Assembly (NCBI GenBank): GCA_002419055.1
Contig: DIFI01000017.1
Span: forward strand, 41,160-105,159
DNA length: 64,000 nucleotides
Origin: Peptococcaceae bacterium UBA5752
Lineage (GTDB): Bacteria; Bacillota; Dehalobacteriia; UBA4068
Reading direction: 5' to 3'
Shown piece after piece: positions 9,276-31,486 of the stretch (its first letter is position 1; every line of letters starts with the position of its first letter). The translations under genes were made by a program, and so were the position numbers. Below the pieces are notes generated by a model. That model searched no databases, was not told where the DNA came from, and saw only the letters and a program-made list of their open reading frames with translations.

Positions 9276-9445
9276 ATGCATTCAGCCCACACTCTACAAA
9301 ATATTAAATCATCAGAAAATCAATGAATGTAATTAGTTATTTTGGGAGCTGGCTGCCATTTCAGAGGCCCTGTAGCTTTGCGTCGCCATCTTTCGATGGG
9401 TTTGCTATTATCTATAACTTTATGACTTTTTCTGACACTTTATAA
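9276..9445. repeat. intergenic repeat family, copy 1 (~170 bp)
   Basis: gcattcagcccacactctac...aatcaatgaatgta...ttattttgggagctggctgccatttcagaggccctgtagctttgcgtcgccatctttcgatgggtttgctattatctataactt...tctgacactt; recurs at 9446-9577 and 9706-9890. Confidence 0.8.
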
Positions 9446-9577
9446 TGAATGTAACTATAATGTGTAGTTATTTAGGGAGCTGGCTGCCATTTCGTAGGCC
9501 CTGTAGCTTTGCGTCACCATCTTTCGATGGGTTTGCTATTATCTATAACTTTTTAACTTTTTCTGACACTTTAAACT
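9446..9577. repeat. intergenic repeat family, copy 2 (near-identical to core of copy 1)
   Basis: atgaatgtaa...ttatttagggagctggctgccatttcgtaggccctgtagctttgcgtcaccatctttcgatgggtttgctattatctataactt...tctgacactt; ~95% identical to copy 1 over ~100 bp. Confidence 0.8.
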
Positions 9578-9705: not shown

Positions 9706-9890
9706 CATTCAGCTCAATACTCTACTTAAAATATTTGATGTCGTCTGAAAATCAATGAAATTACTATAATATCGAGTAGTTATTTAGAAAGCTGGATGCC
9801 ATTTTACCATTTTACCATTTTACAGACCCAGTGGCTTTGAGCCGCCATCTTTCGATGACCTTGCCTTATCTAAAACTTACTTTTGATTTT
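9706..9890. repeat. intergenic repeat family, copy 3 (diverged, full-length)
   Basis: atgcattcagctcaatactctac...gaaaatcaatgaa...tagttatttagaaagctggatgccatttt(accatttt x2)acagacccagtggctttgagccgccatctttcgatgaccttgcc; shares start, middle and CCATCTTTCGATG core with copies 1-2. Confidence 0.7.
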
Positions 9891-16091: not shown

Positions 16092-16120
16092 TTGCTGACA
16101 TATGAATACCGTGGTATAAT
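16092..16120 (+). promoter_or_regulatory. putative sigma-A promoter with extended -10 for the 1612-aa gene
   Basis: TTGCTG-N17-tgGTATAAT (perfect -10, TG at -15/-14); ~85-nt leader before RBS AAGGGGG. Confidence 0.4.
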
Positions 16121-16210
16121 TATGCCATCAAGCTGCAAATAAAAGAGACCATAACTGATCGCAAATTAACCGGTGTCCATGGATAGAATTTAGAATGAAG
16201 GGGGTTCCCT

Positions 16211-19200
16211 ATGCAAATTGCATCAGAAAAAAAGATGCTGGCCCTTTTGGTACAGCGTCTAAATGATTCGACGAATCCCTATGTTTATTCATTGAAAAGA
16301 AAAGAAGTTAATGCTTTTTTGGAACAGCATGGCTGGGCAAAAAAGATTAATGATTTGCTACGCATGCCTACTTCTGTTACCTGGAAGCGGGTTTTAGAAT
16401 TAAGCCGGGATACGCTGGATTATCTGTGTGAAATGCCGGATGAAGGCTGGTTAAATTTTACCTTGCATTTTGCCATTGATCTGATGTTCCCCAAAGAAGA
16501 GTTTGCTTTACGCCGCAGTAAATTCAGCGACGGAGCAGTTTTTCTGCTTACTTTGATGCAGCTTGTTTATGACGAAGAAAAGAAAGCCGGATTGATACCT
16601 AAATCGGTTGAGTTTTCTTTACTAAATAAATCTGAAGTAGAGGGCGAGTCAACCGCTGTTGAATACAACCGTTTGCTTAAAGCACTTAGACAGGAATATG
16701 TATACGAAATGATGCGGCTGTCTCAGGAACTGTCGCCCTACCGTTCTTTAGAACATATCGCCAATGTTCATCGGATGGCTCTTTATATGGCGCGGCAATT
16801 GAAGCGCTCCGGCGTACCTGTGGACTTATGCCTTATTTCCGGTGCTGCCCTGACTCATGATATAGGTAAATTTGGCTGCCAGAAAGGTGAACGCGTACCT
16901 TATCTGCATTATTTTTATACTGACAGATGGTGCCGGCAGCAAAATATACCCACAATCGGTCATATCGCGGCCAACCATTCTGTTTGGGATCTGGAGCTAG
17001 AAAATTTGTCGGCGGAATCACTGCTGCTCATTTACGCTGATTTTCGTATTAAACAAGTGACAGATAACGGCGTGGAAAATACCCGCGTATTCACACTCAA
17101 GGAAAGCTTCCAAGTCATACTAGAAAAACTTGATAACGTGGATTCCTCCAAGCGGGACCGTTATCTGAAAGTTTATGATAAGCTCAGCGATTTCGAGGAT
17201 TATCTGCGCTTTTTAGGCGTAGATACAAACATGGATGGCAAAGAATTGCATCCTTGCTGCCGCGAAGCCTCTCTGATGACCGGCGAAGAAGCGGTGGCTT
17301 CTTTGAAACTGCTGGGCGTTGAGCATAATATTGCTCTGATGCACCACTTCGGCAACGAACGATTGTTCGGTAACATCCTGGAAGCTGCCCGAACCGAGAA
17401 AAACTGGAAAAATATCCGCGCCTATCTAGGTGTTTTCGATGAATATTTCACTTATCTGAGCATCAGCCAAAAGGTGCAGACGCTGGCTTTTCTTTACGAG
17501 CTGTTGATGAACCGCGAAGGCGATATACGCCGTCAGGCCGCATCGCTACTGGGCAATATCATTGCGCGCTTCGATATCAGCTATAAAAAAGAACTGCCCG
17601 CCGGTGTGGCGGAGGATGATGATATAACCTCGCTGCAAATGTGGGAAAAATATCTTGAGATGATTATTCATCCGAGTTATAAGCTTACCTTCCAACACAA
17701 AAGCTGGATTGGCTTTACATTAAAGATAGTTATCTCATCATTTTTCGAAAACTGTGACGAGGCTGACCGCCGTCCTTTTATGGAGCGGCTAACCAAGTGG
17801 TTTAGCAGCCCGGATAAGGAAGAGTTGGTCAACTTCTATTTACTTGATGCAATCAATTATCTGCCTCTGAAATTTTGCACGGACAAGGAAAGGTCGCGTC
17901 TACTGACATTTGCCATGGATGCAGCCGAAGGCTCCATATCACTGTTGCGCGCCTCTGCTTTGCGTACTTTGAGCTATATCGTTGCCATCGGCTACCCCTT
18001 AGAACAAGATGAGGTTCGTCGTCTGTCCGCGCTTTGCGTACCCTGCAACGATCAAGAAGAAAATACTACGCTGCGAATGTTAAAAACGCAAATTCGCAGT
18101 TGTTTATCGGAAAGTGACGAAACTGAATTGACTGCCGTCAGCAGTGATACAATCTCCGATATCTTTCTTGATAATCTGAAGATGGCCACCTCGTGGGTGA
18201 TCAAAACCCTTAACGTGGATCTTTTGCTCAGCGTAGCCGAGCAAGACCCGCACAGTCCTTATCTGCTGCATATCGCCGCTCATTTTGCTAATCTGCTCAA
18301 AGTCAGTGAGCGGGTAGTGGTGCGGCACAAAGCCGGCGCCGCGCTGTTGCACATCGCGCCTCTACTTTCCTATGACCAGCGCAATGAGATAGCAGTGGAG
18401 CTGCTACAGGGACTGGAAGTCGGAGAATATGAATTTTCTAAATATATACCCGAATATTTGGGACAGTTTGCTCTCTGGCTAAGTACCGAAGAACTGGAAG
18501 AATTGATTCTCCAACTCAATGATCTGGTTTACAGTCCTAATACAAATGTGGTAGCCGTCGCCATAGCAACAATTGGCGTTCTGATGGAATGCCTCAATAA
18601 TCGCCGTGACAACTTTGGTGAGACTCACCAAATGCAGGAACGCCGCAGAGAATATTTACTTGGTATACTGCTTAAAGGTTTGGTAGGACGTGACGCTGCA
18701 AGACAGGAGTCGATGCTGATCATCGGACAGCACTTCTTTGCCTCTCGCAAACTGGCCGATGACGATAAACGTCAGCTATTCGGCAAATGCTGTAAAAAGC
18801 TGCTCAGCTTAATTAGCGAATATCGGGAAGGCAAACTGGAATTTTTCTACCGTGCCGCTGTTTTAAACAATATTTACCGCTTCATCAGCGATTCCCAGCT
18901 TAATCATGGGGAATTTGTCATTGAACAATTTGATAAAGTTGCGTTTTTCCCCGGCACCTTCGATCCTTTCTCCAATTCTCACAAAGGTATCGTGGAGGAG
19001 ATGCTTCAGCAGGGCTTCGAAGTAATGCTGGCTATCGATGAATATTCCTGGTCCAAAAAAACGCAGCCGCATTTTATCCGGCATCAATTAGCCAATATGA
19101 CTTTGGCCGATAAATTTCATGTCTATGTTTATCCCGGATCTATGCCGGTTAATATTGCAAATCCGCAGGATCTGGCTATGCTGCGACATTCTCTGCCGGA

Positions 19201-21049
19201 GCGTCATATCTATATAGTAGCCGGCAGCGACGTAGTAGCTAATGCTACCGCCTATAAAGAGCCGCCACAACCCGATTCTATCCACAGCTTCGACCATATC
19301 ATATTTCCGCGTACGGAGGGCGAAGATATTGCGGCAGTGATTGACATGGCCGCACTATCCCGCATCAAAGGCGAAGTGATAAGCCTATCACTGCCGGTAT
19401 ACTTGGAAAATGTCAGTTCTACCAACATCCGTGAGGATATTGACAATAACAGAGATATTTCCAATCTGGTTGACCCCATGGTACAGGAGTTCATCTACAA
19501 CAACAATCTCTATCTGCGTGAGCCTCAATACAAACAGTTACCGAACGTCCGGCAAGCCGAAGTGGAACGCTGGACTTCGGCAAATCCCGCCGATGTACAA
19601 CGTCTGTTAAATAAACTGTTGCCGGAGCGGGGTGAGGCAAATCGTGCGACAGCCGTTGCTTTAAGTAAAAGAGGAAGCGAATTTTTTCTGCTCAAAGATG
19701 ACAGCCAAGAGGCTAGTCCGGTAGGAATGATATCGCTGCACGAAGTGCAGATTTCGGAATTGATGCCTTTGTTGGGCAATACCCATTTGGCGGATAAAGT
19801 CCGCCAACGACAGGCCGGACGAGTATTGTTGATCACCGGCATATATATGAGCAAAGACAGTTGGGACAACTCTCAGCTTCTCTGCACCGAAGTATTTGGA
19901 TCAGCGCTGCGTAACGGCTGTACCCATGCTATGTTCTATCCAATCGACACCGCAGGAAACTGCAATTATGTCTTAGAGTTGCTGAAACGCCAAGGTTTTG
20001 TGGTTTTAGAGGACAATGACCCGCGGCAGCCGTTATATATTACCGATTTGCGTGCGCCTTTGGTGTTGCTCCGCAATATCGAGACATCTATGAAGGCGCC
20101 TTTTGCCAATTTACCGTCTGTATTGAAGGCGGCACAAGGGGCTCACTGGCGGTTGCAGACTGCCATGGCAGGACTCAAGCCGGGTCATCTGGTATTATCC
20201 GTAGATTCCAATATCATGCAGGAAAAGCTGATCCGCCGCATTACAGAACTTAACGGCGTACCGGCAAAACCCGTAGAGCCTCCGCAGTTTGGCCCCTTGA
20301 TGTGCGTTCCTTTCAGCAAGTTACTGCGGCGCAGTATAGTGCCGAATACAGTGACCAAGACAGTGCATACAGACAAAGTGTTTGAGCCAGATATCAGCAA
20401 ATTTTCTATTGAAGCATATCCCAATTATTTGCCGCTGGAATACCAAATTCGCACTATCAAATCATTTATGCGCCCGGTGATTATGGTGACTGATATGCTG
20501 CAAAGCGGCCACAGGTTAAGAACATTATCTCCGATTTTTAATCAACAGGGTATTGAGATCCACGCCGTATTAGCGGGAATATTATCCGGACGGGGCCGTG
20601 ATGTTGTCTCCACGCAAGGTTATCGTGTCGAATGCATCTATTTTGTTCCCAACCTTCATGGCTGGTGCATCGAGTCCACTCTCTATCCTTTCATCGGCGG
20701 AGATACGGTGCGCAGAAATGAAAGTCCTAAGGCCAATCTGCTACCCGCGGTCAACCTGATACTGCCCTATGCTTCTATTCGCATTTTCAACCAATTTCCG
20801 AGAAAAGCGGTATACGATTATTCGCTTGCATGTATGGAAAATGCCCGCGATATCATGCAGGTGTTGGAACAGGAATACGCCGCCCGCTTCGGACGCAATC
20901 TGACATTGAACCGCCTCTCTGAAGTTATCCACCTGCCGTTGCTGCCTGATAAGGGTAAATATATGCAATATGATTACAATCTTACGGCATCTGTTTATAT
21001 AAAAAATGATATCGAGCTGCTGTTGCGGCTGAGTAATCAGTTTCGATGA
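16211..21049 (+). CDS. giant multidomain protein: HD phosphohydrolase motif + long helical (HEAT/ARM-like) region + HxGH/ISSTxIR nucleotidyltransferase domain (NMN/NaMN adenylyltransferase-like) + type-I phosphoribosyltransferase-like domain
   Basis: HD motif ...NVHRMALYMARQL...ALTHDIGKFG...HIAANH...LIYADFR (nt ~16750-17080); NTase FFPGTFDPFSNSHKGIV ... ENVSSTNIRE (nt ~18940-19440); PRTase-like VIMVTDMLQSGHRLRTL (nt ~20477-20527); strong RBS; single uninterrupted ORF. Confidence 0.85.
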   Translation: MQIASEKKMLALLVQRLNDSTNPYVYSLKRKEVNAFLEQHGWAKKINDLLRMPTSVTWKRVLELSRDTLDYLCEMPDEGWLNFTLHFAIDLMFPKEEFALRRSKFSDGAVFLLTLMQLVYDEEKKAGLIPKSVEFSLLNKSEVEGESTAVEYNRLLKALRQEYVYEMMRLSQELSPYRSLEHIANVHRMALYMARQLKRSGVPVDLCLISGAALTHDIGKFGCQKGERVPYLHYFYTDRWCRQQNIPTIGHIAANHSVWDLELENLSAESLLLIYADFRIKQVTDNGVENTRVFTLKESFQVILEKLDNVDSSKRDRYLKVYDKLSDFEDYLRFLGVDTNMDGKELHPCCREASLMTGEEAVASLKLLGVEHNIALMHHFGNERLFGNILEAARTEKNWKNIRAYLGVFDEYFTYLSISQKVQTLAFLYELLMNREGDIRRQAASLLGNIIARFDISYKKELPAGVAEDDDITSLQMWEKYLEMIIHPSYKLTFQHKSWIGFTLKIVISSFFENCDEADRRPFMERLTKWFSSPDKEELVNFYLLDAINYLPLKFCTDKERSRLLTFAMDAAEGSISLLRASALRTLSYIVAIGYPLEQDEVRRLSALCVPCNDQEENTTLRMLKTQIRSCLSESDETELTAVSSDTISDIFLDNLKMATSWVIKTLNVDLLLSVAEQDPHSPYLLHIAAHFANLLKVSERVVVRHKAGAALLHIAPLLSYDQRNEIAVELLQGLEVGEYEFSKYIPEYLGQFALWLSTEELEELILQLNDLVYSPNTNVVAVAIATIGVLMECLNNRRDNFGETHQMQERRREYLLGILLKGLVGRDAARQESMLIIGQHFFASRKLADDDKRQLFGKCCKKLLSLISEYREGKLEFFYRAAVLNNIYRFISDSQLNHGEFVIEQFDKVAFFPGTFDPFSNSHKGIVEEMLQQGFEVMLAIDEYSWSKKTQPHFIRHQLANMTLADKFHVYVYPGSMPVNIANPQDLAMLRHSLPERHIYIVAGSDVVANATAYKEPPQPDSIHSFDHIIFPRTEGEDIAAVIDMAALSRIKGEVISLSLPVYLENVSSTNIREDIDNNRDISNLVDPMVQEFIYNNNLYLREPQYKQLPNVRQAEVERWTSANPADVQRLLNKLLPERGEANRATAVALSKRGSEFFLLKDDSQEASPVGMISLHEVQISELMPLLGNTHLADKVRQRQAGRVLLITGIYMSKDSWDNSQLLCTEVFGSALRNGCTHAMFYPIDTAGNCNYVLELLKRQGFVVLEDNDPRQPLYITDLRAPLVLLRNIETSMKAPFANLPSVLKAAQGAHWRLQTAMAGLKPGHLVLSVDSNIMQEKLIRRITELNGVPAKPVEPPQFGPLMCVPFSKLLRRSIVPNTVTKTVHTDKVFEPDISKFSIEAYPNYLPLEYQIRTIKSFMRPVIMVTDMLQSGHRLRTLSPIFNQQGIEIHAVLAGILSGRGRDVVSTQGYRVECIYFVPNLHGWCIESTLYPFIGGDTVRRNESPKANLLPAVNLILPYASIRIFNQFPRKAVYDYSLACMENARDIMQVLEQEYAARFGRNLTLNRLSEVIHLPLLPDKGKYMQYDYNLTASVYIKNDIELLLRLSNQFR

Positions 21050-21066: not shown

Positions 21067-22320
21067 ATGTACTATGCCAAATTAGATGAAAACTATATAT
21101 GTTCTTTAAAAGGCGATTTACCGGGGCAGAAAGTGCATCAATTGCCATCGGATGTATCTCGGACGGTTTTTTTGTTTGAGCGCGATCCGTTAACTTGCCG
21201 TGATGCTTTCGCCGTTACCCACCCTTGCCAATTGTCCGCGCAAACAGAGGATGTGACTTGGCTGGCATCTGAGAGTTTACCGTCGGCGGAAAAACTGCCG
21301 CTACAAGTGACAGAGCTAATCCGTAATGACCAACTGCGTGCAGTCAACAAATCGCATCCCCGCTGGAGAGAATTGCTAAATTGTACTGCTGCGGAGGGGA
21401 AAAAACGGGTCAATATTATCGCAGTAGGCGATGTCGGCGGTACTGTGCTTATTGGTCTGCGTCTATTGGGTGGCGATATACTTTCTTCTATCGGCATCTA
21501 TGACCTGTCGCCCACGACTTTAGACCGCTGGGAATTCGAAGTGGGACAAGTTTACTCTCCCTGGACCGAATATCAGCCTCCGCATGTAGCCATAATAGAT
21601 GAGGAAAACATCTTCGATTGCGATATGCTGGTCTTTTGCGCCACCGGCGGCGTGCCTCCGCTTGCGGAAAAAGGCGATGTACGTTTAGCACAGCTTGCCG
21701 TCAACAGCCGTTTAGTATCACATTATGCCAAACTGGCACGCCAGCGAAGTTTTGGCGGCATCTTTGCGGTTGTCAGCGATCCGGTTGATCTGCTTTGCCG
21801 CATAGCATGGTTGGAAAGTAACCGTAATCATGACGGCCGCTGGGACGGCAAGGGTTTATTCACGGCACAGGTGGAGGGCTACGGTTTAGGAGTTATGTAT
21901 GCGCGGGCAGCTTATTATGCCCGCCGCGACAGCCGCTTTGCTGCTTTTTTGAACGATGGCGCAGCTTATGGGCCTCACGGCTCCGAACTGGTTATTGCCA
22001 ATTCCCTGTCTGATTATGACGATGACCTATCAAGGGAATTGACGCGCCTGGCTGCCGAGGCTAATCTGGAAGCCAGGTCACGGGATTTCAAGCCCTTCAT
22101 TGCGCCTGCTCTTTCCTCCGCTGCTTATCAGATACTCGACACTTTGCGGGGACGCCCTCATCTCGGCGCAACTATGCTGGGTGATATCTTTTTCGGCGCT
22201 GTCAACCGGCGAGGGCCCTCCGGCATAGAGGTTTTTTCTCATCCCCTACCGCAAGAGCTGCTATCCCGTATCCAATATTCTGCTGCTGTTTTGCAAAATT
22301 TGGGAGAACACTATGAATAA
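21067..22320 (+). CDS. lactate/malate dehydrogenase-family (Ldh_1-like) NAD(P)-binding protein with ~100-aa N-terminal extension
   Basis: KRVNIIAVGDVGGTVLIGL (Rossmann GxGxxG), DMLVFCATG, SDPVDLL (cf. LDH TNPVDIL), GYGLGVMYARAAYYAR, GPHGSELV (cf. GEHGDS with catalytic His); TAGGAG RBS, 18-nt gap after upstream gene. Confidence 0.7.
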   Translation: MYYAKLDENYICSLKGDLPGQKVHQLPSDVSRTVFLFERDPLTCRDAFAVTHPCQLSAQTEDVTWLASESLPSAEKLPLQVTELIRNDQLRAVNKSHPRWRELLNCTAAEGKKRVNIIAVGDVGGTVLIGLRLLGGDILSSIGIYDLSPTTLDRWEFEVGQVYSPWTEYQPPHVAIIDEENIFDCDMLVFCATGGVPPLAEKGDVRLAQLAVNSRLVSHYAKLARQRSFGGIFAVVSDPVDLLCRIAWLESNRNHDGRWDGKGLFTAQVEGYGLGVMYARAAYYARRDSRFAAFLNDGAAYGPHGSELVIANSLSDYDDDLSRELTRLAAEANLEARSRDFKPFIAPALSSAAYQILDTLRGRPHLGATMLGDIFFGAVNRRGPSGIEVFSHPLPQELLSRIQYSAAVLQNLGEHYE

Positions 22321-23359
22321 AGATTTAGTTCTTGTGATGCCTCATTGCGGTGAAAAAGAAAAAACACTGCGTATGCGCAGCGTACTCAAATATGCCCTTG
22401 AAGGCCAAAAAATCAGCCGCCGTATTGAGACAGTCAAAGAGCTAGAGGATCTTCAAGGTTGCCGTATTCTGTTTGCGGTCAATCTGGGGGCATCGGGAAT
22501 CAACCTCAGTTTTTATGCGATGCTGAAAAAAATACGCCTGCACAGTCACATGTTCGAAGGTTGTGTCGGTGGAGTGATAGTGGACGGACAAAGTGTGCTT
22601 TATACAAAAGCTGTGGCCCGCGACCTAGTCTTTGCTGCAAATACGGCAGGCTGCGCCTTTATTGGCCGGCCGTTGGTGGAAGGACCGGCATCACTGGCCA
22701 ATTTTCATATTTTGGCGCAAATAAATGATACCGATGAATGGTCGGCTTATCACCGTGAGGCGCGTAGTATGGTCGAACGCATCTGTTCAACCAAGCCGCC
22801 ACGACCGGGACGCGGTGAGGTGCTGGTGCTTCATGCTTCTTCACGCAGTACATCCAACACTTTGATGCTGTGGGAGATGATCCGCTCTCATCTCGGCGAG
22901 CGTCCAATAACCGAAATATGTCTGCGTAACGGCACTGTCAAAGACTGTGTCGGCTGCCCTTATAAAACCTGCCTCCATTTTGGTGAGCAGAACAGTTGTT
23001 TTTACGGCGGAGTTTTAACCGAAAGCGTTTATCCGGCCATTCAGCGTTGTGACAGCCTAGTGATGCTCTGCCCCAATTATAACGACTCGGTATCCGCCAA
23101 TATTTCCGCCGGTATCAACCGGCTGACCGCTTTATTCCGCAATGTCCGTTTTTATGATAAAAAAACCCATGCTGTGATTGTCTCAGGTTATTCCGGCAGC
23201 GATATTGTGGCCGGACAGTTGATCGCGGCGCTTAATATGAATAAAAGTTTCTATCTGCCGCCGCGCTTTTGCATCTGCGAAACCGCCAATAACGTGGGTA
23301 GTATCCTCAAAGTCGAAGGTATAAGTGAGCGCGCCGCGGCGTTTGCTAAAACGATATAA
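22313..23359 (+). CDS. NADPH-dependent FMN reductase/flavodoxin-like fold protein with ~150-aa N-terminal extension
   Basis: C-terminal half VLVLHASSRSTSNTLMLWEMI...CDSLVMLCPNYNDSVSANISAGINRL resembles FMN_red/iron-sulfur flavoprotein family; start overlaps upstream stop by 8 nt. Confidence 0.55.
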   Translation: MNKDLVLVMPHCGEKEKTLRMRSVLKYALEGQKISRRIETVKELEDLQGCRILFAVNLGASGINLSFYAMLKKIRLHSHMFEGCVGGVIVDGQSVLYTKAVARDLVFAANTAGCAFIGRPLVEGPASLANFHILAQINDTDEWSAYHREARSMVERICSTKPPRPGRGEVLVLHASSRSTSNTLMLWEMIRSHLGERPITEICLRNGTVKDCVGCPYKTCLHFGEQNSCFYGGVLTESVYPAIQRCDSLVMLCPNYNDSVSANISAGINRLTALFRNVRFYDKKTHAVIVSGYSGSDIVAGQLIAALNMNKSFYLPPRFCICETANNVGSILKVEGISERAAAFAKTI

Positions 23360-23370
23360 GTATTTATCAA

Positions 23371-23420
23371 AACAAATACGTCGGTTTTGTGATAAGAAAC
23401 CGGCGTATTTGTTATTTTTA
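23371..23420 (+). terminator. rho-independent terminator ending the three-gene operon
   Basis: 17-bp stem aacaaatacgtcggttt/aaaccggcgtatttgtt (one G-U), loop tgtgataag, then ATTTTT. Confidence 0.8.
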
Positions 23421-23518: not shown

Positions 23519-24310
23519 ATGAGTAAGTCCAATGTTTTTATGATAATGCCTTTCGAAGATGCATTTTTTGAAGCATATGAAATGCTTAAAGAAAGATTTG
23601 CTGATAATTTTGAGTTTTGTCATGCAGGGGACGATGTAAATACACAACAAAACGTTCTTAAGGACATTGTACAAATGATTTGTAATGCAGATGTCATCAT
23701 CGCAGATTTAACAAACCTAAACTCAAATGTCTTTTATGAATTAGGGGGTTGCTCACACTCTTAAAAAAAAAATGTTATTATCATCACACAGAATATAAGT
23801 GAACTACCGTTTGATATTGAATCTTACAGAGCAATAGAATATTCTGTGCATTTTAAGAGATTTGATAATCTAATCAAAGAACTTGAGAGATACTTGAAAG
23901 GTGCAATAGACGGAACGGTAACTTTTGGAAATCCGGTGACAGATTTCTTATCTACTGTTAGCTCCACAATACAAAAAACTTATAAAACAGAAAGCTCTTT
24001 GGACGAGACAATTGGTGAGAAAGTATTCATTGATTTTTTGGTAGATATTGAAGAAAAAACATTATTATTTACAGATACCATTGTTGAAATGACGGCCGAT
24101 CTTAATAATATGACGGATGATATAACTAAAGAAACAGCAGAAATTAATCGTGTCAAACAAAACGGGGGCTCTGGTACCGCATTATTTATGCGTAAAACAG
24201 CAAAAATAGTTGCAGAAAGCATAAGTTTTTTTGCTAAGAAAGTAATAATCATAACTCTAGCTACTTATATTTATGACCGGAAATTGAGAAGAATTGTATT
24301 GGCCTTCTAG
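23519..24310 (+). pseudogene. nucleoside 2-deoxyribosyltransferase/Rcl-like (SLOG-like) domain protein interrupted by one in-frame TAA at 23762-23764
   Basis: ORFs 23519-23764 and 23846-24310 are in the same frame with no other stop between; joined reading gives ...ADVIIADLTNLNSNVFYELGGCSHS*LKKNVIIITQNISELPFDIESYRAIEY..., i.e. the NDT/Rcl motif (FE[IL]G with catalytic Glu, then hydrophobic K-P-V-I strand); stop sits at start of an A10 run. Confidence 0.5.
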
Positions 24311-24592
24311 AGAATAAGTATATCAATGAACCAGAAATAAAACTGAAATAATAACATTTCTTAAATCATTATTCCAAATGAAGCAGACAATAATTACTAC
24401 TTCCGAACAAACAAAAGATATGATAGATAGTTTTTCAGCCTTAAAACGATACAAAGTTATTTAGAGATTGACCTCAATAAGTTTTTACAATTTTCAGCAC
24501 AGATGGTAGCCTCTATTGATAGGATTTTGGATAAGAGTAAATTTGTGGTAGGACAAATAGACTTTTCCGAATAAATAAATATTCTTTGATTA

Positions 24593-24632: not shown

Positions 24633-24911
24633 TTAACCTCCCGCAACGACCGGGAATATGGCAACTAAATCATTTGCGGCAAGTTTGGTATGGATTCCGT
24701 TAAGATGTTGGACATGCCGTCCGTTGACAAGGATGATGATTTCGGAGTTCAAATCCGTTTGCTCTTCGTCAAACACCGCATCCCTAAATTTATTACCGTA
24801 CTTTTTGGACAGTTGCCGTAACAAATCGGCGAGATCATCAACCGATTCATTCCAGCTTGTCCGTTTTTCGCCGGTATAATCGCGGATATAAGCAAAATAT
24901 TTGATCTCCAT
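24633..24911 (-). CDS. MoaD/ThiS-family sulfur-carrier (ubiquitin-like) protein
   Basis: 92 aa ending in ...FPVVAGG (C-terminal Gly-Gly), AAGGGGTG RBS; last gene of the AOR operon. Confidence 0.7.
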   Translation of the reverse strand: MEIKYFAYIRDYTGEKRTSWNESVDDLADLLRQLSKKYGNKFRDAVFDEEQTDLNSEIIILVNGRHVQHLNGIHTKLAANDLVAIFPVVAGG

Positions 24912-24950
24912 ACTCTCACCCCTTAAAGTAATATCTTAACACATCATACC

Positions 24951-25730
24951 TTATTTATCAGAATCAAGATACTCATCCAAATGCAAGCCGTCTTTGAGCC
25001 TTGTCGCTGCCCGCTTGGTCTTACAATAATTACAAAGCTGTAACTCCTCGATATTACCTACCGTTTCGCCCAATTTTTTGCGAACATGCTCCAACGACTC
25101 CGGCGTTGTGAAATACTCACCGCAATCCCGGCAGCGCAATAACTCAAACGTCTTTTCCCAAATGGTGCGGTTTCCTTCTGCTTCGGTCATCTCGATTGCC
25201 TGCGTAGGACATATAATGGCGCACGAGCCGCAGCCAATGCAATCCGCCGCCGGTTCGTTAAAGGCCGTACCGATCTTCTTTTTTGTCCCCCGGTTGAGCG
25301 TAGAAATCGCATTAGTGCCTAATTCCTCGCAAGCTTTGACGCACAAACCGCAAAGGATGCATTTACTGTCCGGATCGGCTTCTAAACGGTCGAACGGTTC
25401 GACATGATAGCGTGCAAGCAACCCTTTGATTCTCGCACTGTCCGGCGCAATTAAATTATACAATGCCAGCAATATCTTGCGTCTGGCCGCAATCATTTCA
25501 CTGTTAGTGAATACTTCCATGCCGTCGGCTACAGGATAAGTGCAGGAGGCCACATATTGAGTTCTCCCGTTTTCATGTACTTCGACCATACATAAACGGC
25601 ATGATGCCAAACCAGGCAGCGCCTCTGAATGGCATAAAGTAGGTATCTCAATGCCGTTGCGCCGTGCCACATCCAGGATTTTTTCGCCGGGATTGGCCGC
25701 ATACGTTTTCCCATTTATGATTATTTGCAT
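24951..25730 (-). CDS. 2Fe-2S ferredoxin-type + 4Fe-4S cluster protein (NuoG/HydC N-terminal-like electron-transfer subunit)
   Basis: Start at internal ATG (MQIIINGKTY...) with AAAGGAGG RBS; CHSEALPGLASCRLCMVEV (2Fe-2S), CILCGLCVKAC and CIGCGSCAIICP (4Fe-4S). Confidence 0.7.
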   Translation of the reverse strand: MQIIINGKTYAANPGEKILDVARRNGIEIPTLCHSEALPGLASCRLCMVEVHENGRTQYVASCTYPVADGMEVFTNSEMIAARRKILLALYNLIAPDSARIKGLLARYHVEPFDRLEADPDSKCILCGLCVKACEELGTNAISTLNRGTKKKIGTAFNEPAADCIGCGSCAIICPTQAIEMTEAEGNRTIWEKTFELLRCRDCGEYFTTPESLEHVRKKLGETVGNIEELQLCNYCKTKRAATRLKDGLHLDEYLDSDK

Positions 25731-25746
25731 CTTATCTCGCCTCCTT

Positions 25747-27543
25747 TTAATGCACTCGGATTGCATCCACCGCACAGCGTTCACGGCAACTGTTGCAATT
25801 GATACATTTTGCTTCATCCAAAACATGAGGCTGCTTTTTCTCGCCGCTAATGGCCGCCGTCGGACATGATTTTGCACACAAGCCGCAGCCGATACAAGCT
25901 TCTTGATCAATGTAAAGCTTTGTCAAGTTCTTACAAACTCCGGCCGGACAACGTTTATCTTTGATGTGAGCTTCAAATTCATCGCGGAAATTTTTAATAT
26001 TAGAAAGTACAGGATTTGGCGCTGTTTTTCCAAGGCCGCACAACGAATTAGCCTTGACCATTGACCCGATTTCTTCCAATAATTCGATATCCCCTTCTTG
26101 CCCCTTTCCTTCGCAAATATCGTTGAGGATCTTCAGCATACTTTTGATACCTTCACGGCAAGGCACGCATTTTCCGCATGATTCTTCGGACAAAAATTTC
26201 AGGTAATAGCGGGCAAATTCTACCATACAGGTGCGGTCGTCAATGACGATCATGCCGCCGGAACCCATCATTGATCCTTCCGCGATCAGCGAATCATAGT
26301 CGATTGGCAAATCAAGTTTGCTTTCCGGAATACAGCCTCCGGAAGGACCGCCCGTTTGTACCGCTTTAAACTTACGTTTTTTCTCGATGCCGCCGCCGAT
26401 GTCAAATATGATCTCCCGCAATTTGATACCCATCGGTACTTCCACCAAGCCGGTATTATTGATTTTGCCGACCAAAGCGAAAACTTTGGTTCCTTTACTC
26501 TTTTCACTGCCGATTGAGGCAAACCAATCAGCGCCTTTACTGATGATCACCGGCACATTCGCCCAGGTTTCCACATTATTGATGATTGTCGGCTTGCCCC
26601 ATAAGCCTTGGTTTGCCGGAAACGGCGGTTTGGACGTCGGTTCACCGGTTGAGCCTTCGATTGAATGAATTAAGGATGTTTCCTCGCCGCAGACAAATGC
26701 GCCGCCACCGCGTACCACTTCAGCGTCAAACGCAAACCCGCTGCCAAAAATATTTTGACCCATAACTCCTCTTGCATGTGCATCGGCAATCGCCTTTTTC
26801 ATGTTTTCCACGGCCAGGCCATATTCATCACGGATATACAGGAATGCACGATTAGCGCCGATTGCATAACCGCATATAGCCATACCTTCCAATACAGTAT
26901 GCGGGTCTCCTTCCATTATCGAACGGTCCATAAATGCACCCGGGTCGCCTTCGTCGCCGTTGCAGATAACATATTTGATGTCTCCTTGAGCTTTGGCAGC
27001 AAACGACCATTTTAAACCGGTCAGAAAACCGCCGCCGCCTCTACCGCGCAAGCTGGATTTTCTTATTTCATCTATTACCTCTTGCGGAGTCATCGTCTTT
27101 AACACTTTTTCCAGTGCTTGATAACCGCCTTTGGCAATGTAATCATCAATGCTGTCATTTGCTATACATCCACAATGACGCAAAGCAATCCTAAATTGTT
27201 TCTTTTCGAACGACCAATCATTCTTGGATTGGATCTTTGCATTTTGTTGTTTATCAAAATACAGCAGTCTGTCGATTACTTCGTCTTTAATAATGCTTCG
27301 TTCAATGATCTCCTGAACATCTGTGGTTTTAACATGAATATATGTAATTTCTTGCGGCGTAATATGAACCAACGGGCCTTTTTGGCAAAGGCCATGGCAA
27401 CCTGTTTTTTTGATATCGGCAACAACTTCAACATCCAAATCCAGTTTAGATATTATTTTTTGCATAGTTTGGTATATTTTCATACTGCCACTTGCCTGGC
27501 ATCCGGTGCCGCAGCAAACAAATATCGTTTTTTTATTTTGCAT
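25747..27543 (-). CDS. NuoF/HydB-like NAD(H)-binding FMN + Fe-S subunit (51-kDa family) with N-terminal thioredoxin-like and C-terminal 2x[4Fe-4S] domains
   Basis: GGGGFLTGLKWSF, ICNGDEGDPGAFMDRSIMEGDPH (FMN/NADH site), ESCGKCVPCREG (N3 cluster), C-terminal CIGCGLCAKSCP...CINCNSCRERC. Confidence 0.9.
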   Translation of the reverse strand: MQNKKTIFVCCGTGCQASGSMKIYQTMQKIISKLDLDVEVVADIKKTGCHGLCQKGPLVHITPQEITYIHVKTTDVQEIIERSIIKDEVIDRLLYFDKQQNAKIQSKNDWSFEKKQFRIALRHCGCIANDSIDDYIAKGGYQALEKVLKTMTPQEVIDEIRKSSLRGRGGGGFLTGLKWSFAAKAQGDIKYVICNGDEGDPGAFMDRSIMEGDPHTVLEGMAICGYAIGANRAFLYIRDEYGLAVENMKKAIADAHARGVMGQNIFGSGFAFDAEVVRGGGAFVCGEETSLIHSIEGSTGEPTSKPPFPANQGLWGKPTIINNVETWANVPVIISKGADWFASIGSEKSKGTKVFALVGKINNTGLVEVPMGIKLREIIFDIGGGIEKKRKFKAVQTGGPSGGCIPESKLDLPIDYDSLIAEGSMMGSGGMIVIDDRTCMVEFARYYLKFLSEESCGKCVPCREGIKSMLKILNDICEGKGQEGDIELLEEIGSMVKANSLCGLGKTAPNPVLSNIKNFRDEFEAHIKDKRCPAGVCKNLTKLYIDQEACIGCGLCAKSCPTAAISGEKKQPHVLDEAKCINCNSCRERCAVDAIRVH

Positions 27544-28021
27544 CTTCGATCCCTCCTTGATATTGTTGGAGTATTTGTCTCAAGGAAGCAGGTGTCAAAT
27601 TGCCATGATATTCATCATTGATTACCGCAACAGGTGCTAGTCCGCAAGCGCCTATACAGGCAACCGTTTCCAATGAAAACAATCCGTCGGCGGTAGTTTC
27701 CCCGGGTTCGATACCGAGAATCGTTTCTATTTCCGAAAGCAGGTTTAAAGAGCCTTTAATATGACAGGCAGTTCCATCACACACCTTTATAATATACTTA
27801 CCCTTGGGGGTAAGGCTGAATGCTTTATAAAATGTAGCCATTCCACAAACCTTGACTAATGGAACATTAAGGTATTGAGCAACGGTCTTCATTGCTTCCG
27901 CAGGCAAATAATTATAATGTCTTTGTATATCTTGCAAGATTGCCAGCAAAAATCGGCGTTCCGGCAGATATTTTTGGGCAATCTTTAAAGTCTCCGATTT
28001 TATTTGCGATATTTCACTCAT
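27533..28021 (-). CDS. NuoE/HydA-gamma-like [2Fe-2S] thioredoxin-like subunit
   Basis: CDGTACHIKG...CIGACGLAPV motif; start set to ATG (MSEISQIK) with GGGGGG RBS. Confidence 0.85.
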   Translation of the reverse strand: MSEISQIKSETLKIAQKYLPERRFLLAILQDIQRHYNYLPAEAMKTVAQYLNVPLVKVCGMATFYKAFSLTPKGKYIIKVCDGTACHIKGSLNLLSEIETILGIEPGETTADGLFSLETVACIGACGLAPVAVINDEYHGNLTPASLRQILQQYQGGIEDAK

Positions 28022-28094
28022 AATTATCCCCCCAGCCATTGAGAAAGAGAGGGAAAGAAGACCAATACTCCTTTCCCCATTCTTTCATTTTTTT

Positions 28095-29909
28095 TTAAAG
28101 CTGTTTCAAATTCAAATCTTGCATTTTCTCTGCAGTCGGTACACCGGATGGGTTCCAACCGCGCAATTGATAATATTCGGGCAGCATTTCATGTAAACGG
28201 TTGACGCTTCCCTTATATGCGCCATTCTTTTGTGGCTCATTCAAGATTCTCGGCGGCAGCGTATCGTCTGCGCCTGTAAAACCACAGGCGTTATTAAAGA
28301 CACGCTCCAGGTTCCAGATCCGTTCGCCGCATTTCATTAATTCTTCCCCGGTATACTCAAACCCGGTTCCGGCTGATAATACTTTGGCAATGATATCAGC
28401 GTCAAGCGCAAATGTTGTAAATAGACAGAAGCCGGCAGCATCAACTGCGGAAGTCAAATCCTGGAATATCTTGCAAACTGCAGCTTTACCTTCGGTAACA
28501 GCCGGGTCCAGCTTCATCGGAATGCCGAGGATTTCCGGCGAAGTCATATATCCACGAACATGGCAGCCGCCACGATTGGATGTTGCATATTCAAGTCCGA
28601 TACCTTGTAATGTACGTGGCTCGTAGGCAGGCATTTCCTGCTTTTTAACGCTCATTGACAATTCGGCATGGCCGTAATGTTCGGCCAAACGATACGAACC
28701 TTCGGCCAATAAGTTACCGATACCCTCACGGTAAGCGGTTTTTTCGACCAGCTCTTTTAATATTGCTGCATTACCAAATGACAGATCACAACCGGCATCT
28801 TCTTTGGGCATATAACCGCTTTCATAAAGCTCCATCGCGCAAGCAATCGTAGTCGGCATGGAAATTGCATCAATACCCAATTCATTACAGCGGAAGTTTG
28901 CTTGACAGATGGCGTCAATATCGCTGATACCACAGTCGGCGCCAAAGCCCCAGCCTGCTTCATACTCTGGGCCTTCGCCAAATCCCGCATATGGCTTGAA
29001 TGTGCGTGTGACCCTGCCACAACCTATAACACAAGAAAAACATCCTTTATTACGAACAAGATTCTTGTGCTCAATCATATACTCACCGCTCGTCTTGTCC
29101 GCCCATTCAATAGTGCCCGAATCCCTGAAGTTACGAACCGGCAAACCATTGGATTGGTCAAGAATATTGATAAGTATCTGCGTACCGTAGGCCTTTAATC
29201 CGGCGCCGGTGACAGGATTATCTTTTAATGCTTTTGTTGCCTCAGTAATAGCTGTTGCAAATCTATCCCTATTTGCTACATAAACCGGTTTATTGCCTTT
29301 AACTGCAATGGCCTTTAAATTTTTAGAACCCATGACGGCACCGACACCGCTTCGTCCGGCGGCTCTGTTCATTTCGTTCAAAATACAAGCAAATTTGCAT
29401 AGGTTTTCACCGGCAGGCCCGATACAGGAAATTTTTGCTCTTTCGCTGGTTTCGGTACGCAACAGATCAGTTGTGTCGGGCACTTCTTTGCCCCAAATAT
29501 GAGAGGCATCTTTAATTTCAACTTTATCGTTATCGATCCACAGATAAACCGGTTTTTCGGATTTGCCTTCGATAACAAAGCCATCATACCCCGCAAACTT
29601 CATTTCGGCGCCAAATTCGCCGCCTGAGTTTGAACTGGCAATCGTATTAGTTAACGGACCGCGTGTTATTACCATGAAACGGCCGGATGACGGAGATCCG
29701 GTGCCAGTCAAAGGCCCTGTCAAATAATACATATTATTTGCCGGATCCAACGGAGCTACATTAGGACCGACTTCCTCACAATACATTTTTGTCCCCAGCC
29801 CACGCCCGCCAATATATTCACGTGCATATTCCTGGTTTAAGGACTCGGTCGAAATTGTACCGTTTGTTAAATTGACTCTTAATAACTTACCTTGATAACA
29901 ACTGGACAT
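28095..29909 (-). CDS. tungsten-type aldehyde:ferredoxin oxidoreductase (AOR family)
   Basis: 604 aa; N-terminus MSSCYQGKLLRVNLTNGTISTESLNQEYAREYIGGRGLGTKM and full-length AFOR N/C domain pattern; GAGGAGGTG RBS. Confidence 0.9.
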   Translation of the reverse strand: MSSCYQGKLLRVNLTNGTISTESLNQEYAREYIGGRGLGTKMYCEEVGPNVAPLDPANNMYYLTGPLTGTGSPSSGRFMVITRGPLTNTIASSNSGGEFGAEMKFAGYDGFVIEGKSEKPVYLWIDNDKVEIKDASHIWGKEVPDTTDLLRTETSERAKISCIGPAGENLCKFACILNEMNRAAGRSGVGAVMGSKNLKAIAVKGNKPVYVANRDRFATAITEATKALKDNPVTGAGLKAYGTQILINILDQSNGLPVRNFRDSGTIEWADKTSGEYMIEHKNLVRNKGCFSCVIGCGRVTRTFKPYAGFGEGPEYEAGWGFGADCGISDIDAICQANFRCNELGIDAISMPTTIACAMELYESGYMPKEDAGCDLSFGNAAILKELVEKTAYREGIGNLLAEGSYRLAEHYGHAELSMSVKKQEMPAYEPRTLQGIGLEYATSNRGGCHVRGYMTSPEILGIPMKLDPAVTEGKAAVCKIFQDLTSAVDAAGFCLFTTFALDADIIAKVLSAGTGFEYTGEELMKCGERIWNLERVFNNACGFTGADDTLPPRILNEPQKNGAYKGSVNRLHEMLPEYYQLRGWNPSGVPTAEKMQDLNLKQL

Positions 29910-29912
29910 AAC

Positions 29913-30392
29913 TTATGACACCTCCTCAAACACTTTTTTGAACTTCTCGGCATAAAGTGCTTTTTTGGCCATGACGACTTCACTGGCTTCTTTGTATTCA
30001 ATCGCGCCATTGGGACAAGCTTTTGCGCATGCCGGTTCACCTTTACATAAATCACATTTAAGTACGCGTTTTGTTTCAACATCATACGAAATATTACCGA
30101 AAGGACAAGCGCTGACACACAGCTTACAACCAATACATTTTTGCTTTTCCCATACCACTCCGTTTGTTGCGGTATCTCTGCCAAGCGCTCCGGTAGTGCA
30201 AACATTCATACACGGTGCATCTTCGCAATGCATACACATCAAAGGTACTCCTAAGCCTATCCGTTCCCAAATAAGAGTATGTACTCTTGACTTTGCCGGG
30301 TTAAAAGCATCTTCTTTGGCAAATGAACATGCTAATTCGCAGTTCCGGCAGCTGGCACATTTTTCCGGAGAAATAATCAATATCTTTTGCAT
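29913..30392 (-). CDS. polyferredoxin-like 4x[4Fe-4S] protein (AorA-like electron-transfer subunit)
   Basis: 159 aa with four CxxCxxCxxxCP-type motifs (CASCRNCELAC, CMHCEDAPCMNVC, CIGCKLCVSACP, CDLCKGEPACAKACP); weak RBS. Confidence 0.8.
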   Translation of the reverse strand: MQKILIISPEKCASCRNCELACSFAKEDAFNPAKSRVHTLIWERIGLGVPLMCMHCEDAPCMNVCTTGALGRDTATNGVVWEKQKCIGCKLCVSACPFGNISYDVETKRVLKCDLCKGEPACAKACPNGAIEYKEASEVVMAKKALYAEKFKKVFEEVS

Positions 30393-30574
30393 TTTCCGGC
30401 TGCAACCGTTATTTACGGTGCAGACTTCACCCCCCTTTTAATAATTTGTAACCTTACTTTATCTCGTGTAACATTTTTGATATTATCAAACACTATTTCC
30501 TTTTATCATTTTACAATTTGATTATATCATATTATCTTGATTTATCAACTATTTTTTACTTAATAATTCATAAA

Positions 30575-30610
30575 ACAAAAAAGAGGCACAAATTTGCCTC
30601 TTTTTTGTTT
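30575..30610. terminator. bidirectional terminator between IclR gene and AOR operon
   Basis: aagaggca-caaatt-tgcctctt hairpin flanked by A-run and T-run. Confidence 0.65.
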
Positions 30611-30659
30611 TATGCTATCTATAGCAGCTATTTCTTATTAAAGTAAACAAATTATTTTA

Positions 30660-31442
30660 CTAATATAAAACAACATTATCAACTATTTCCGATAATTGTT
30701 TACCGTACCTGAGAAGTAAATGTATTATTCTCTTCATCTGCATATCAGTTATTTGTGATGGTTCACCGGAAACCGAAACTGCCCCGACAATTTTATCACC
30801 AAAACCAAAAACAGGGACAGCCAGGGAAATTGTTTCATCATATTCGAGATCATTGACTGCATAACCGCGCAAGCGTATTTCAATCAATTCCTTATTTAAT
30901 ATTTCCGGATCCGTAATTGTTTTTTTCGTATAAGCGGTTAAACCGGTTTTTTTGAGTATCCTTTCCCGTTCATATTCAGGCAAATAAGCAAGAAAAACCT
31001 TTCCTGCCGCACTTGCATGCATCGGCACAGAAGCCCCGATCAGATTATGTCCATATATCAAGTGTGTTTTTTCACGCACCAGAACGCTGGTTGCTTTTTC
31101 TCCGCTGCGGATACAAAAATAAATTCGGATACCTATCTCATCATAAAACTCCGTAAGCAATGCGCCAATTTCCTGATAAGGAAGATCTTTACGCAAATAA
31201 CTCTCGCCGACACGAAAAGCCTCAGGACCAATGCGATATTTTTTATTTTCCGGATTCTGCAAAACATACTTTTCGCGCACAAGAGTAGCCATATAATGAT
31301 GTATTGTGCTTTTATTTATGTCTAACGATTCCGATAGGTCGTTAATCGAAAGTTCTTCATTTACAGTTGCCATATAACTTAAGATCTGGAGGCATTTTTG
31401 TGCCGAAGTAATTATTCTTGCCTCTTTTTCTTTGGTTGCCAT
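30660..31442 (-). CDS. IclR-family transcriptional regulator
   Basis: N-terminal wHTH (LQILSYMATVNEELSINDLSESLDINKSTIHHYMATL) plus C-terminal IclR effector domain, 260 aa. Confidence 0.85.
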   Translation of the reverse strand: MATKEKEARIITSAQKCLQILSYMATVNEELSINDLSESLDINKSTIHHYMATLVREKYVLQNPENKKYRIGPEAFRVGESYLRKDLPYQEIGALLTEFYDEIGIRIYFCIRSGEKATSVLVREKTHLIYGHNLIGASVPMHASAAGKVFLAYLPEYERERILKKTGLTAYTKKTITDPEILNKELIEIRLRGYAVNDLEYDETISLAVPVFGFGDKIVGAVSVSGEPSQITDMQMKRIIHLLLRYGKQLSEIVDNVVLY

Positions 31443-31486
31443 AAATTATCACATCCTTAGATATGCAGCTTCAATAGTATCTTTAA

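Follow-up and report, generated by a model that had tools for sequence, protein, structure and literature searches.

A conserved operon of anaerobic bacteria joins a divergent LDH/MDH-like protein and a two-domain flavoprotein to a giant protein with HD and NadD-like domains

Introduction

The described systems that come closest to the locus reported here are the lactate and malate dehydrogenases (LDH and MDH), the Isf flavoproteins and the fusions of NadD with YqeK. Residues of LDH are given below in the established numbering of the family, and Isf proteins consist of a single domain of about 190 residues. The Isf motif, CX2CX2CX5-7C, binds a [4Fe-4S] cluster, and the Isf family comprises redox proteins of anaerobes that are induced by oxidative, nitrosative and cysteine stress in Entamoeba (PMC3164229). 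In the characterised NadD-YqeK fusion, dinucleotides that NadD makes in error are hydrolysed by the HD domain (PMC9426524). Here we report the computational analysis of a stretch of 64,000 nt from Peptococcaceae bacterium UBA5752 (contig DIFI01000017.1, positions 41,160 to 105,159), hereinafter designated the window, which carries an operon of three genes encoding a giant protein with HD and NadD-like domains, an LDH-like protein (the Ldh-like protein) and a flavoprotein of FMN_red type.

The operon brings known superfamilies together in a combination without described function in the curated libraries and literature searched. Specifically, no curated family in Pfam or NCBIfam names any of the three proteins beyond superfamily level, and a literature search on the protein names and the domain combination found no paper on the trio. 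The operon is widespread in anaerobic gut and sediment bacteria and is experimentally accessible. Because it is compact, self-contained and conserved, it makes a tractable target for new nucleotide-linked redox chemistry in anaerobes.

The three genes form a conserved operon

The Ldh-like and flavoprotein genes are the second and third cistrons of an operon conserved in anaerobes, and the first cistron encodes the giant protein. The operon and its signals are laid out as follows, the genes being taken from the list of open reading frames (ORFs).

16095-16121, + strand: candidate sigma-70 promoter of the operon, with a -35-like CTGACA and an extended -10 element, TGGTATAAT, at 16113-16121
16211-21049, + strand: giant gene, first cistron, 1612 aa
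21056-21060, + strand: AGGAG ribosome-binding site of the Ldh-like gene, inside the 17-nt spacer and 6 nt before the ATG, by reading of the sequence
21067-22320, + strand: Ldh-like gene, second cistron, 417 aa
22313-23359, + strand: FMN_red-like flavoprotein gene, third cistron, 348 aa
23371-23423, + strand: intrinsic terminator common to the operon, an 18-bp stem with a 7-nt loop (hairpin 23371-23413) followed by a T run

The spacer between the giant and Ldh-like genes measures 17 nt, and the reading frames of the Ldh-like and flavoprotein genes overlap by 8 nt (ATGAATAA). An earlier note on this DNA, made from the sequence without database searches, had the overlap right and the spacer one nucleotide too long, at 18 nt. 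Such tight coupling suggests stoichiometric co-expression of the three proteins and possibly a complex between them. The hairpin at 23371-23413 is the sole strong terminator-like site on the operon strand and is followed by the T run, confirming the single terminator that had been proposed for all three genes. The candidate promoter lies about 90 nt ahead of the ATG of the giant gene, and a promoter scan flagged the same -35 hexamer, as a consensus match only.

A scan with one genome per species found a relative of the Ldh-like protein in at least 575 species genomes, and the Ldh-like family comprises 171 clusters at 50% identity (E <= 1e-30). Each of the three proteins has many full-length homologues, of about 410 (Ldh-like), 353 (flavoprotein) and 1615 (giant) residues, with identities of 46-63% overall and 46-61% for the giant homologues; flavoprotein family members range from 344 to 412 aa. 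The named homologues are mostly from Clostridia.

Gene order was examined in 85 loci, 80 from the species scan and five others (the window contig L001, L004, L086, L088 and L089). The giant gene stands directly upstream of the Ldh-like gene in 58 of the 63 loci with enough room, and the flavoprotein gene directly downstream of it in 68 of 76. All three genes are adjacent, in the order giant, Ldh-like, FMN-like, in 48 of the 59 loci with room on both sides. Intergenic gaps are mostly shorter than 50 nt, overlaps are frequent, and the trio is retained at 34% identity. The co-occurrence check thus upholds the proposal that the three genes form one conserved unit. Trio loci span Oscillospiraceae, Lachnospiraceae, Anaerovoracaceae, Peptococcaceae, Peptostreptococcales and Atribacterota, and the carriers include Oscillibacter, Dysosmobacter, Fournierella and genomes labelled Lachnospiraceae and Clostridium. 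Clustering of all flank ORFs of the loci yielded no fourth conserved gene. The operon lies in a different genomic context in each lineage examined, the closest relative (59% identity) included, so the link to flagellar genes seen in the window is incidental.

Two kinds of partial locus occur. Some Oscillibacter and Dysosmobacter genomes have the Ldh-like and flavoprotein genes only, while other genomes, including that of the closest relative of the window genes, have the giant and Ldh-like genes only. Both pairs retain the Ldh-like gene, which is therefore the common partner.

Several individual loci are recorded here as side observations. In Acetoanaerobium noterae (L088; NZ_CP154629.1), three ORFs of 1594, 421 and 348 aa match the trio in size and order, and only the middle ORF was matched by sequence, at 40.6% identity. 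This locus lies on a circular replicon of 2.63 Mb with 4 annotated features that is filed as a 'plasmid' in PLSDB. Plasmid carriage of the operon was considered and discarded, that replicon being the one match. In L011, L019, L022-L028, L034, L037, L053, L058 and L059, a Fur/PerR-like gene (14 loci) and a rubrerythrin gene (12 loci) lie about 5.5-7.5 kb upstream of the Ldh-like gene, just ahead of the giant gene; these neighbours may be a hint of redox stress or plain synteny. Members were also found in metagenome-assembled genomes (MAGs) of Bacteroidaceae (L008) and Bacteroidales (P0364), with sequences typical of the Clostridia group. The few members in Bacteroidota and Lentisphaeria MAGs are probably binning contamination and not a true occurrence.

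The Ldh-like protein is a divergent branch of the LDH/MDH superfamily

Within the LDH/MDH superfamily, the Ldh-like protein represents a divergent branch, marked by an N-terminal domain that is specific to its family. Three domains were delimited in it.

21067-21396, + strand: N-terminal domain, aa 1-110, five short strands and short helices, R45 invariant (DSSP; predicted local distance difference test score, pLDDT, 88-98)
21397-21831, + strand: NAD-binding Rossmann domain, aa 111-255, with invariant G121, D122, G124, D146, R206 and D238 (HMMER and hhalign alignments to LDH/MDH)
21832-22317, + strand: catalytic domain, aa 256-417, with a conserved loop 252-268, G271xG273LGVM277xAR280 and GPH304G (invariant columns, model register)

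At the sequence level the relationship is distant. Pfam Ldh_1_N matches residues 114-254 with E 1.7e-5 and 25.3 bits (cut-off 27), and Pfam Ldh_1_C has no match in the protein. NCBIfam L-LDH models score far under their cut-offs (27.6 vs 303.6 for TIGR01771; 25.7 vs 339 for PRK00066), so that in the family-model test for LDH/MDH the protein stays below the curated cut-offs of both libraries. LDH sequences in the PDB match with E ~1e-5, and the similarity is restricted to the NAD-binding half.

The predicted structure covers the whole chain. An AlphaFold2 model calculated from 36 homologues has a pLDDT of 93.4 and a predicted template modelling score (pTM) of 0.93. The top 50 PDB matches of this model in Foldseek are all L-LDH, with E ~1e-17 to 1e-16, 329-358 aligned columns, template modelling (TM) scores of 0.69-0.80 over the target length and 16-21% identity; for the leading matches the ranges are 0.72-0.80 and 17-21%. 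From these matches, the Ldh-like protein has the complete two-domain LDH fold.

The hallmark motifs of LDH/MDH that the earlier note had read in the second protein were located as AVGDVGG (119-125), SDPVDLL (237-243) and GPHG (302-305). Specifically, G121 and G124 of the Gly-rich NAD loop, together with D146, which is the acidic residue that follows beta-2, align to LDH/MDH and do not vary among 36 sequences. R206, likewise invariant, is the equivalent of Arg109, as both HMMER and hhalign pair it with the Arg of GETRL in LDH and of GMDRS in MDH. D238 of SDPVD aligns to LDH Asn140. For the catalytic half, residue alignments to LDH/MDH by HMMER and hhalign were unreliable or truncated, and the fetched loci held no canonical LDH/MDH genes for a better profile. 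In the model, a strand at 269-271 runs into G271-x-G273 and a helix at 274-287, like the strand, GSG and helix of LDH (LD168xAR171), and a strand at 299-302 is followed by GPH304G, like GEH195G of LDH. By this motif and secondary-structure register, M277, R280 and H304 would occupy the positions of Asp168, Arg171 and His195, respectively.

Other features are specific to the family, namely an invariant Asp122 within the Gly-rich loop and the conserved insertion at 252-268. Eight Arg or Lys residues are invariant (R45, R154, R206, R225, R280, R337, K342 and R401), which hints at an anionic ligand. Confidence in the model is lowest at the loop 191-210, which agrees with mobility of a loop in the active site.

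The first ~110 residues match no Pfam family even at E <= 10, and their family consensus runs from the first Met (MYYY...) and contains RAVNxxHPRW. The N-terminal regions of this protein and of the flavoprotein are both conserved from the first Met, and thus are not start-codon artefacts. The extension noticed earlier in the second protein is therefore real, at about 110 aa; it is not peculiar to this locus, being a family-wide domain that is unnamed in Pfam, NCBIfam and PDB sequence searches. One family member seemingly without this domain was checked; its contig measures just 1.3 kb, and truncation probably explains the apparent gene start.

The flavoprotein contains an invariant four-Cys loop

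Two flavodoxin-like domains make up the flavoprotein. The C-terminal domain is a member of the FMN_red family and has a loop with four invariant Cys residues.

22313-22801, + strand: N-terminal alpha/beta domain, about aa 1-163, alternating strands and helices, pLDDT 83-96
22808-23356, + strand: C-terminal flavodoxin-like FMN_red domain, about aa 166-348 (Pfam, Foldseek, invariant columns)
22946-22999, + strand: four-Cys loop C212-x2-C215-x4-C220-x8-C229, all four invariant (alignment A2), candidate Fe-S site

Pfam FMN_red matches residues 170-318 (E 3.6e-13, 49.8 bits vs a cut-off of 24), and Foldseek matches the C-terminal half to YwqN, WrbA, AzoR and flavodoxins with probability 1.0. The FMN-binding loops of this domain, LHASxxxTSNT, CPNYND and SGYSGSD, are conserved in the family. 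The AlphaFold2 model (pLDDT 83.7, pTM 0.86) shows two alpha/beta domains, at residues 1-160 and 168-348. Residues 207-232, which span the four-Cys loop, are the sole stretch with pLDDT below 50, as would be expected of a metal-dependent loop modelled without its ligand.

The first ~165 residues have no Pfam match even at E <= 10, and the invariant residues of the N-terminal domain include D91, G92, T98, K99, N110, G113, C114 and E123. The earlier note had correctly assigned the C-terminal half to FMN_red; what it took for an unrecognisable N-terminus of about 150 aa is, by structure prediction, a second flavodoxin-like alpha/beta domain. This domain is indeed without a name in Pfam, NCBIfam and PDB sequence searches, but it is family-wide and not specific to the locus. 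An origin by internal duplication was considered and rejected, as the domain has no detectable similarity to the C-terminal one (hhalign probability 1.9%). Whole-chain Foldseek matches to two-domain SIS proteins were likewise set aside, since a root-mean-square deviation of ~20 Å leaves them little meaning.

The giant protein combines HD and nucleotidyltransferase domains

The following regions were delimited in the giant protein.

16748-17041, + strand: HD phosphohydrolase domain, aa 180-277 (Pfam HD, E 1.2e-4 on the isolated segment)
17246-18925, + strand: stretch of ~560 residues between the HD and nucleotidyltransferase domains, possibly a helical repeat (sub-threshold Arm, E 0.16, and HEAT, E 0.9)
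18929-19540, + strand: NadD/PPAT-like nucleotidyltransferase domain, aa 907-1110 (Pfam CTP_transf_like, E 2.8e-6)
20078-21046, + strand: C-terminal region, aa 1290-1612, with a tentative phosphoribosyl pyrophosphate (PRPP) loop like that of type-I phosphoribosyltransferases (alignment A3)

In NCBIfam, the HD region also matches HDIG and the HD portion of the DVU_1551 family, and H216 and D217 are invariant in 23 sequences. NCBIfam NadD models align over their full length to the nucleotidyltransferase domain with E ~2e-9, at 35-38 bits vs cut-offs of 112-315, and the top PDB sequence matches of the domain are PPAT chains. Where NadD has the signatures (H/T)xGH and ISSTxxR, the domain reads PGTFDPFSNSH, in which the last His is invariant and the first position of the signature variable, and VSSTNIR. 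A PRPP-binding loop runs from four hydrophobic residues through two acidic ones into a turn with Gly; in the C-terminal region, the family consensus of the PRPP-like loop is RPVILVDDLLHxGxR, and the window protein reads VIMVTDML. Matches to Pribosyltran stay below threshold; they occur in 8 of the 23 members, with a best E of 0.0041, and the window protein has none; a match to HPRT falls on the same loop with E 0.93. When the N-terminal and C-terminal segments and the middle one (aa 1105-1295) were compared as profiles with PDB sequences, nothing reached E < 0.09. A GNAT identity for aa 1105-1295 was dropped, as it came from one sub-threshold match in 23 members.

The mix of NAD Rossmann, FMN and nucleotidyl-transfer chemistry that the earlier note saw in the three genes holds at the level of domains, by Pfam, NCBIfam and Foldseek.

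Proposed function and alternatives

We tentatively lean toward a reading by analogy in which the two small proteins would be a redox module serving an enzyme of nucleotide synthesis and hydrolysis. The Ldh-like protein and the flavoprotein would form a redox pair that serves the giant protein. The Ldh-like enzyme would bind NAD(H) and act on a substrate of the 2-hydroxy/2-oxo-acid type, probably polyanionic, by means of the retained residues equivalent to Arg109, Arg171 and His195; with Asp168 replaced, we propose that its chemistry is tuned differently from that of LDH. The flavoprotein would bind FMN and probably a [4Fe-4S] cluster, and electrons would pass through it between this same pool of substrate or cofactor on one side and NAD(P)H or a low-potential carrier on the other. 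The giant protein, with its HD domain, NadD/PPAT-like domain and PRPP loop, would make, edit or hydrolyse a nucleotide-linked compound, a role proposed on the precedent of the NadD-YqeK fusion.

A number of observations weigh against such a redox module. The links from fold to function are all drawn by analogy. The catalytic Asp168 is not kept under either alignment (Met277 or Phe265), and with its equivalent absent the Ldh-like protein might be a poor dehydrogenase or a binding module. A low-confidence HMMER alignment sets F265 and Q268, instead of M277 and R280, at positions 168 and 171, and for this reason we infer the Arg171 and His195 equivalences from motif and secondary-structure register. 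The Cys spacing of the flavoprotein, CX2CX4CX8C, departs from the Isf motif, and the loop is unmodelled. In the window protein, a Thr replaces the first Asp of the PRPP-like loop (VTD vs VDD), and the phosphoribosyltransferase-like assignment, read from the sequence, is weak and tentative. About 10% of the loci lack one partner beside the Ldh-like gene. Upstream of the operon, no Rfam match to a riboswitch or leader RNA lies nearby in the window or in seven homologous loci, and a search for a common upstream DNA motif in 54 loci returned just A-rich words and lineage-specific 10-mers. Neither result points to a ligand.

An unlikely alternative is that the operon encodes a signalling or regulatory machine, with the giant protein as synthetase and hydrolase of a dinucleotide signal or as a controller of the NAD pool. 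The nucleotidyltransferase would make the signal and the HD domain destroy it, following the logic of RelA/SpoT or of Ap4A turnover, the PRPP-loop domain and the middle region would be sensor and scaffold, and the Ldh-like and flavoprotein subunits would serve as gauges of the redox state or of the ratio of NADH to NAD+. The HD and nucleotidyltransferase domains do share one chain, with the ~560 residues of weak Arm/HEAT matches between them, and YqeK-type HD proteins are Ap4A hydrolases. The partly degenerate PRPP loop fits a sensor, Asp168 is lost from the Ldh-like protein, the operon has no transporter or further pathway enzymes, and in one lineage Fur/PerR-like genes (14 loci) and rubrerythrin genes (12 loci) stand divergently upstream. 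However, the invariance of the Arg and His residues of the Ldh-like protein that would contact the substrate favours catalysis over nucleotide sensing, Pfam and NCBIfam scans found no DNA-binding or output domain, and the HD domain is not a YqeK equivalog match.

It is quite unlikely that the operon is an oxidative-stress or detoxification module of strict anaerobes, in which an Isf-like flavoprotein would reduce O2, H2O2 or another oxidant with NADH from the Ldh-like dehydrogenase while the giant protein repaired or replaced damaged pyridine nucleotides. Induction of the Isf family by stress (PMC3164229) and the NadD-YqeK precedent for metabolite damage control (PMC9426524) speak for it, as do the strictly anaerobic habit of all carriers and the PerR-like and rubrerythrin genes adjoining the operon in 12-14 loci. 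However, those neighbours are limited to one Lachnospiraceae/Clostridium group, where they may be synteny, and are absent from the window and most other loci, and the Cys motif of the flavoprotein differs from that of Isf.

A very doubtful variant is that the operon synthesises, edits and uses a non-canonical dinucleotide, as cofactor or signal, in strict anaerobes. Here an unusual mononucleotide would arise at the PRPP-loop domain and receive an adenylyl group from the NadD/PPAT-like domain, with the HD domain hydrolysing or proofreading the product. The Ldh-like protein would be the dedicated oxidoreductase that uses or modifies the dinucleotide, and the flavoprotein would recycle it. A nucleotide pocket altered by Asp122, the missing Asp168 and the extra N-terminal domain would suit such a dedicated oxidoreductase.

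That an ordinary fermentative L-lactate dehydrogenase and a generic NAD(P)H-dependent FMN reductase merely adjoin a large NadD-related gene is improbable. Databases name the homologues 'lactate dehydrogenase' and 'flavodoxin family protein / NAD(P)H-dependent oxidoreductase', and the fold of the Ldh-like protein is that of L-LDH. However, its scores reach 25-28 bits vs cut-offs of 27 (Ldh_1_N) and 303-339 (NCBIfam L-LDH), with no Ldh_1_C match; its identity to solved LDHs is ~19%; Asp168 is not kept and Asn140 is replaced by Asp; an extra domain of 110 residues is conserved; and its gene keeps a fixed synteny with the two others in distant lineages, Atribacterota among them. The database label 'lactate dehydrogenase' on the middle gene is probably wrong, and it could mislead metabolic models of how gut communities turn over lactate.

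Base composition and neighbourhood of the locus

GC content is 0.512 for the Ldh-like gene, 0.490 for the flavoprotein gene and 0.463 for the giant gene, compared with a window mean of 0.426 (standard deviation, sd, 0.048; 45 long ORFs) and 0.39-0.45 for the flanking flagellar and chemotaxis genes; the earlier note had put both smaller genes at ~55%. Values of 0.48-0.51 are also reached by four other window genes. At third codon positions (GC3), the genes have 0.49-0.50 vs a window mean of 0.426 (sd 0.068), within about +1 sd, and GC3 is higher still in four other window genes. In Karlin-type codon-usage distance, the three operon genes rank 43rd, 30th and 12th of 45. The Ldh-like gene has GC of 0.61 and 0.44 at codon positions 1 and 2, vs 0.48 and 0.38 elsewhere. 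The surplus lies at these two positions and therefore reflects amino-acid composition, and with ordinary GC3 and codon usage the composition lends no support to horizontal transfer. The window matches JGI and Logan metagenome contigs, and neighbour gene calls were taken on the matching metagenome contig (L001); they include no mobility gene in the 10 kb flanking the Ldh-like gene on each side. Horizontal acquisition, as the earlier note had read it from composition, is thus not borne out.

A recently acquired genomic island, possibly a defence or accessory cassette, is the least probable reading of all: the raised GC of the genes (0.49-0.51 vs the gene mean), a context that changes even in the closest relative at 59% identity, and the low-GC, apparently decayed gene just downstream would suit it, but GC3 and codon usage are typical of the window, no integrase, transposase or tRNA is among the genes called within 10 kb of the Ldh-like gene (no dedicated tRNA scan was made), the sole 'plasmid' record is a 2.6-Mb replicon, PADLOC gave no meaningful matches, and the best matches of the three proteins lie on one foreign contig at 59-61% identity, which fits joint vertical descent. 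An anti-phage defence system was rejected as a candidate, the PADLOC output being a 14.7-bit stretch of the giant protein (E 0.0033) and nothing for the two small proteins.

Left of the operon are genes for FliD, FliS, MotA, MotB, CheD and CheC. On the right, the low-GC gene that looks decayed is followed by aldehyde:ferredoxin oxidoreductase and NuoEF-like genes clustered on the - strand. These and other features of the window are listed below.

8805-9281, - strand: ORF with a flagellar basal-body rod (Flg_bb_rod) match, downstream of three tandem c-di-GMP-I riboswitch aptamers
9341-9416, 9472-9547 and 9784-9875, - strand: the three aptamers, at 60.8, 61.8 and 35.2 bits, respectively
23519-24570, + strand: region directly past the operon terminator, GC 0.33-0.36, no significant Pfam match
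24633-32680, - strand: genes for a ThiS/MoaD-like protein, ferredoxins, NuoF-like and NuoE-like proteins and aldehyde:ferredoxin oxidoreductase, with IclR and FIST beyond
47110-47169, - strand: fluoride riboswitch (crcB motif), 58.3 bits

In the region 23519-24570, an 81-aa ORF stops just before an A10 run (23765-23774), and an ORF reopens in another frame at 23846-24310. The gene looks frameshifted or decaying, and is possibly phase-variable at the homopolymer. The cluster at 24633-32680 resembles tungsten oxidoreductase/bifurcating modules and is unlinked to the operon in other genomes.

Comparison with known systems

The HD region of the giant protein resembles the DVU_1551 NTP transferase family (NF045665), with aa 154-277 aligning to model positions 194-308 at E 8e-7. 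However, the match reaches 28 bits vs a cut-off of 315, and the DVU_1551 family, of 359 residues, is itself uncharacterised; a literature search on it found no paper.

Like the NadD-YqeK fusions (JCVISYN3A_0380; PRK07152) and the nadD-yqeK pairs of Firmicutes, the giant protein has NadD-like and HD domains, and as in the fusions they stand in one chain. In contrast to them, the order is reversed, with the HD domain first, the two domains are ~630 residues apart, and ~500 residues, including the PRPP-loop domain, follow the nucleotidyltransferase. The giant protein has no YqeK model match, and it scores 35-38 bits vs 112-315 on the NadD equivalogs. The first His of the NadD motif HxGH is not conserved, and the motif is closer to TNGH of PPAT.

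The flavoprotein shares the FMN_red domain (PF03358) with Isf, of which the Methanosarcina thermophila protein is the prototype, and with FMN reductases such as YwqN (1RLI), WrbA and AzoR. It shares their phosphate-loop, PxYN and GG-loop motifs, has four Cys residues ~45-60 residues into the domain and, like Isf, is restricted to anaerobes. The cluster motif of Isf sits at the position of the fold that corresponds to this four-Cys loop; the likeness is close, with a different spacing. However, at 348 residues the flavoprotein is twice as long as Isf and has an extra N-terminal alpha/beta domain without a detectable sequence relative.

The Ldh-like protein shares its two-domain fold (TM 0.77-0.80 over the target length) with LDH/MDH, for example Bacillus subtilis LDH (3PQD) and Geobacillus stearothermophilus LDH (1LDN). 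The likeness extends to the Gly-rich NAD loop, the acidic residue after beta-2, R206 and the xDPVD strand and, by register, to the GxG and helix with R280 and to GxHG with H304. Other than that, the proteins differ, with ~19% identity, Asp168 replaced (by Met277, judging from the register), Asn140 replaced by Asp238 and Asp122 placed in the Gly-rich loop. The Ldh-like protein also has an insertion of ~15 residues at 252-268 and a beta-rich N-terminal domain of ~110 residues, and in contrast to LDH its gene is, in the loci examined, always found beside the giant gene, the flavoprotein gene or both.

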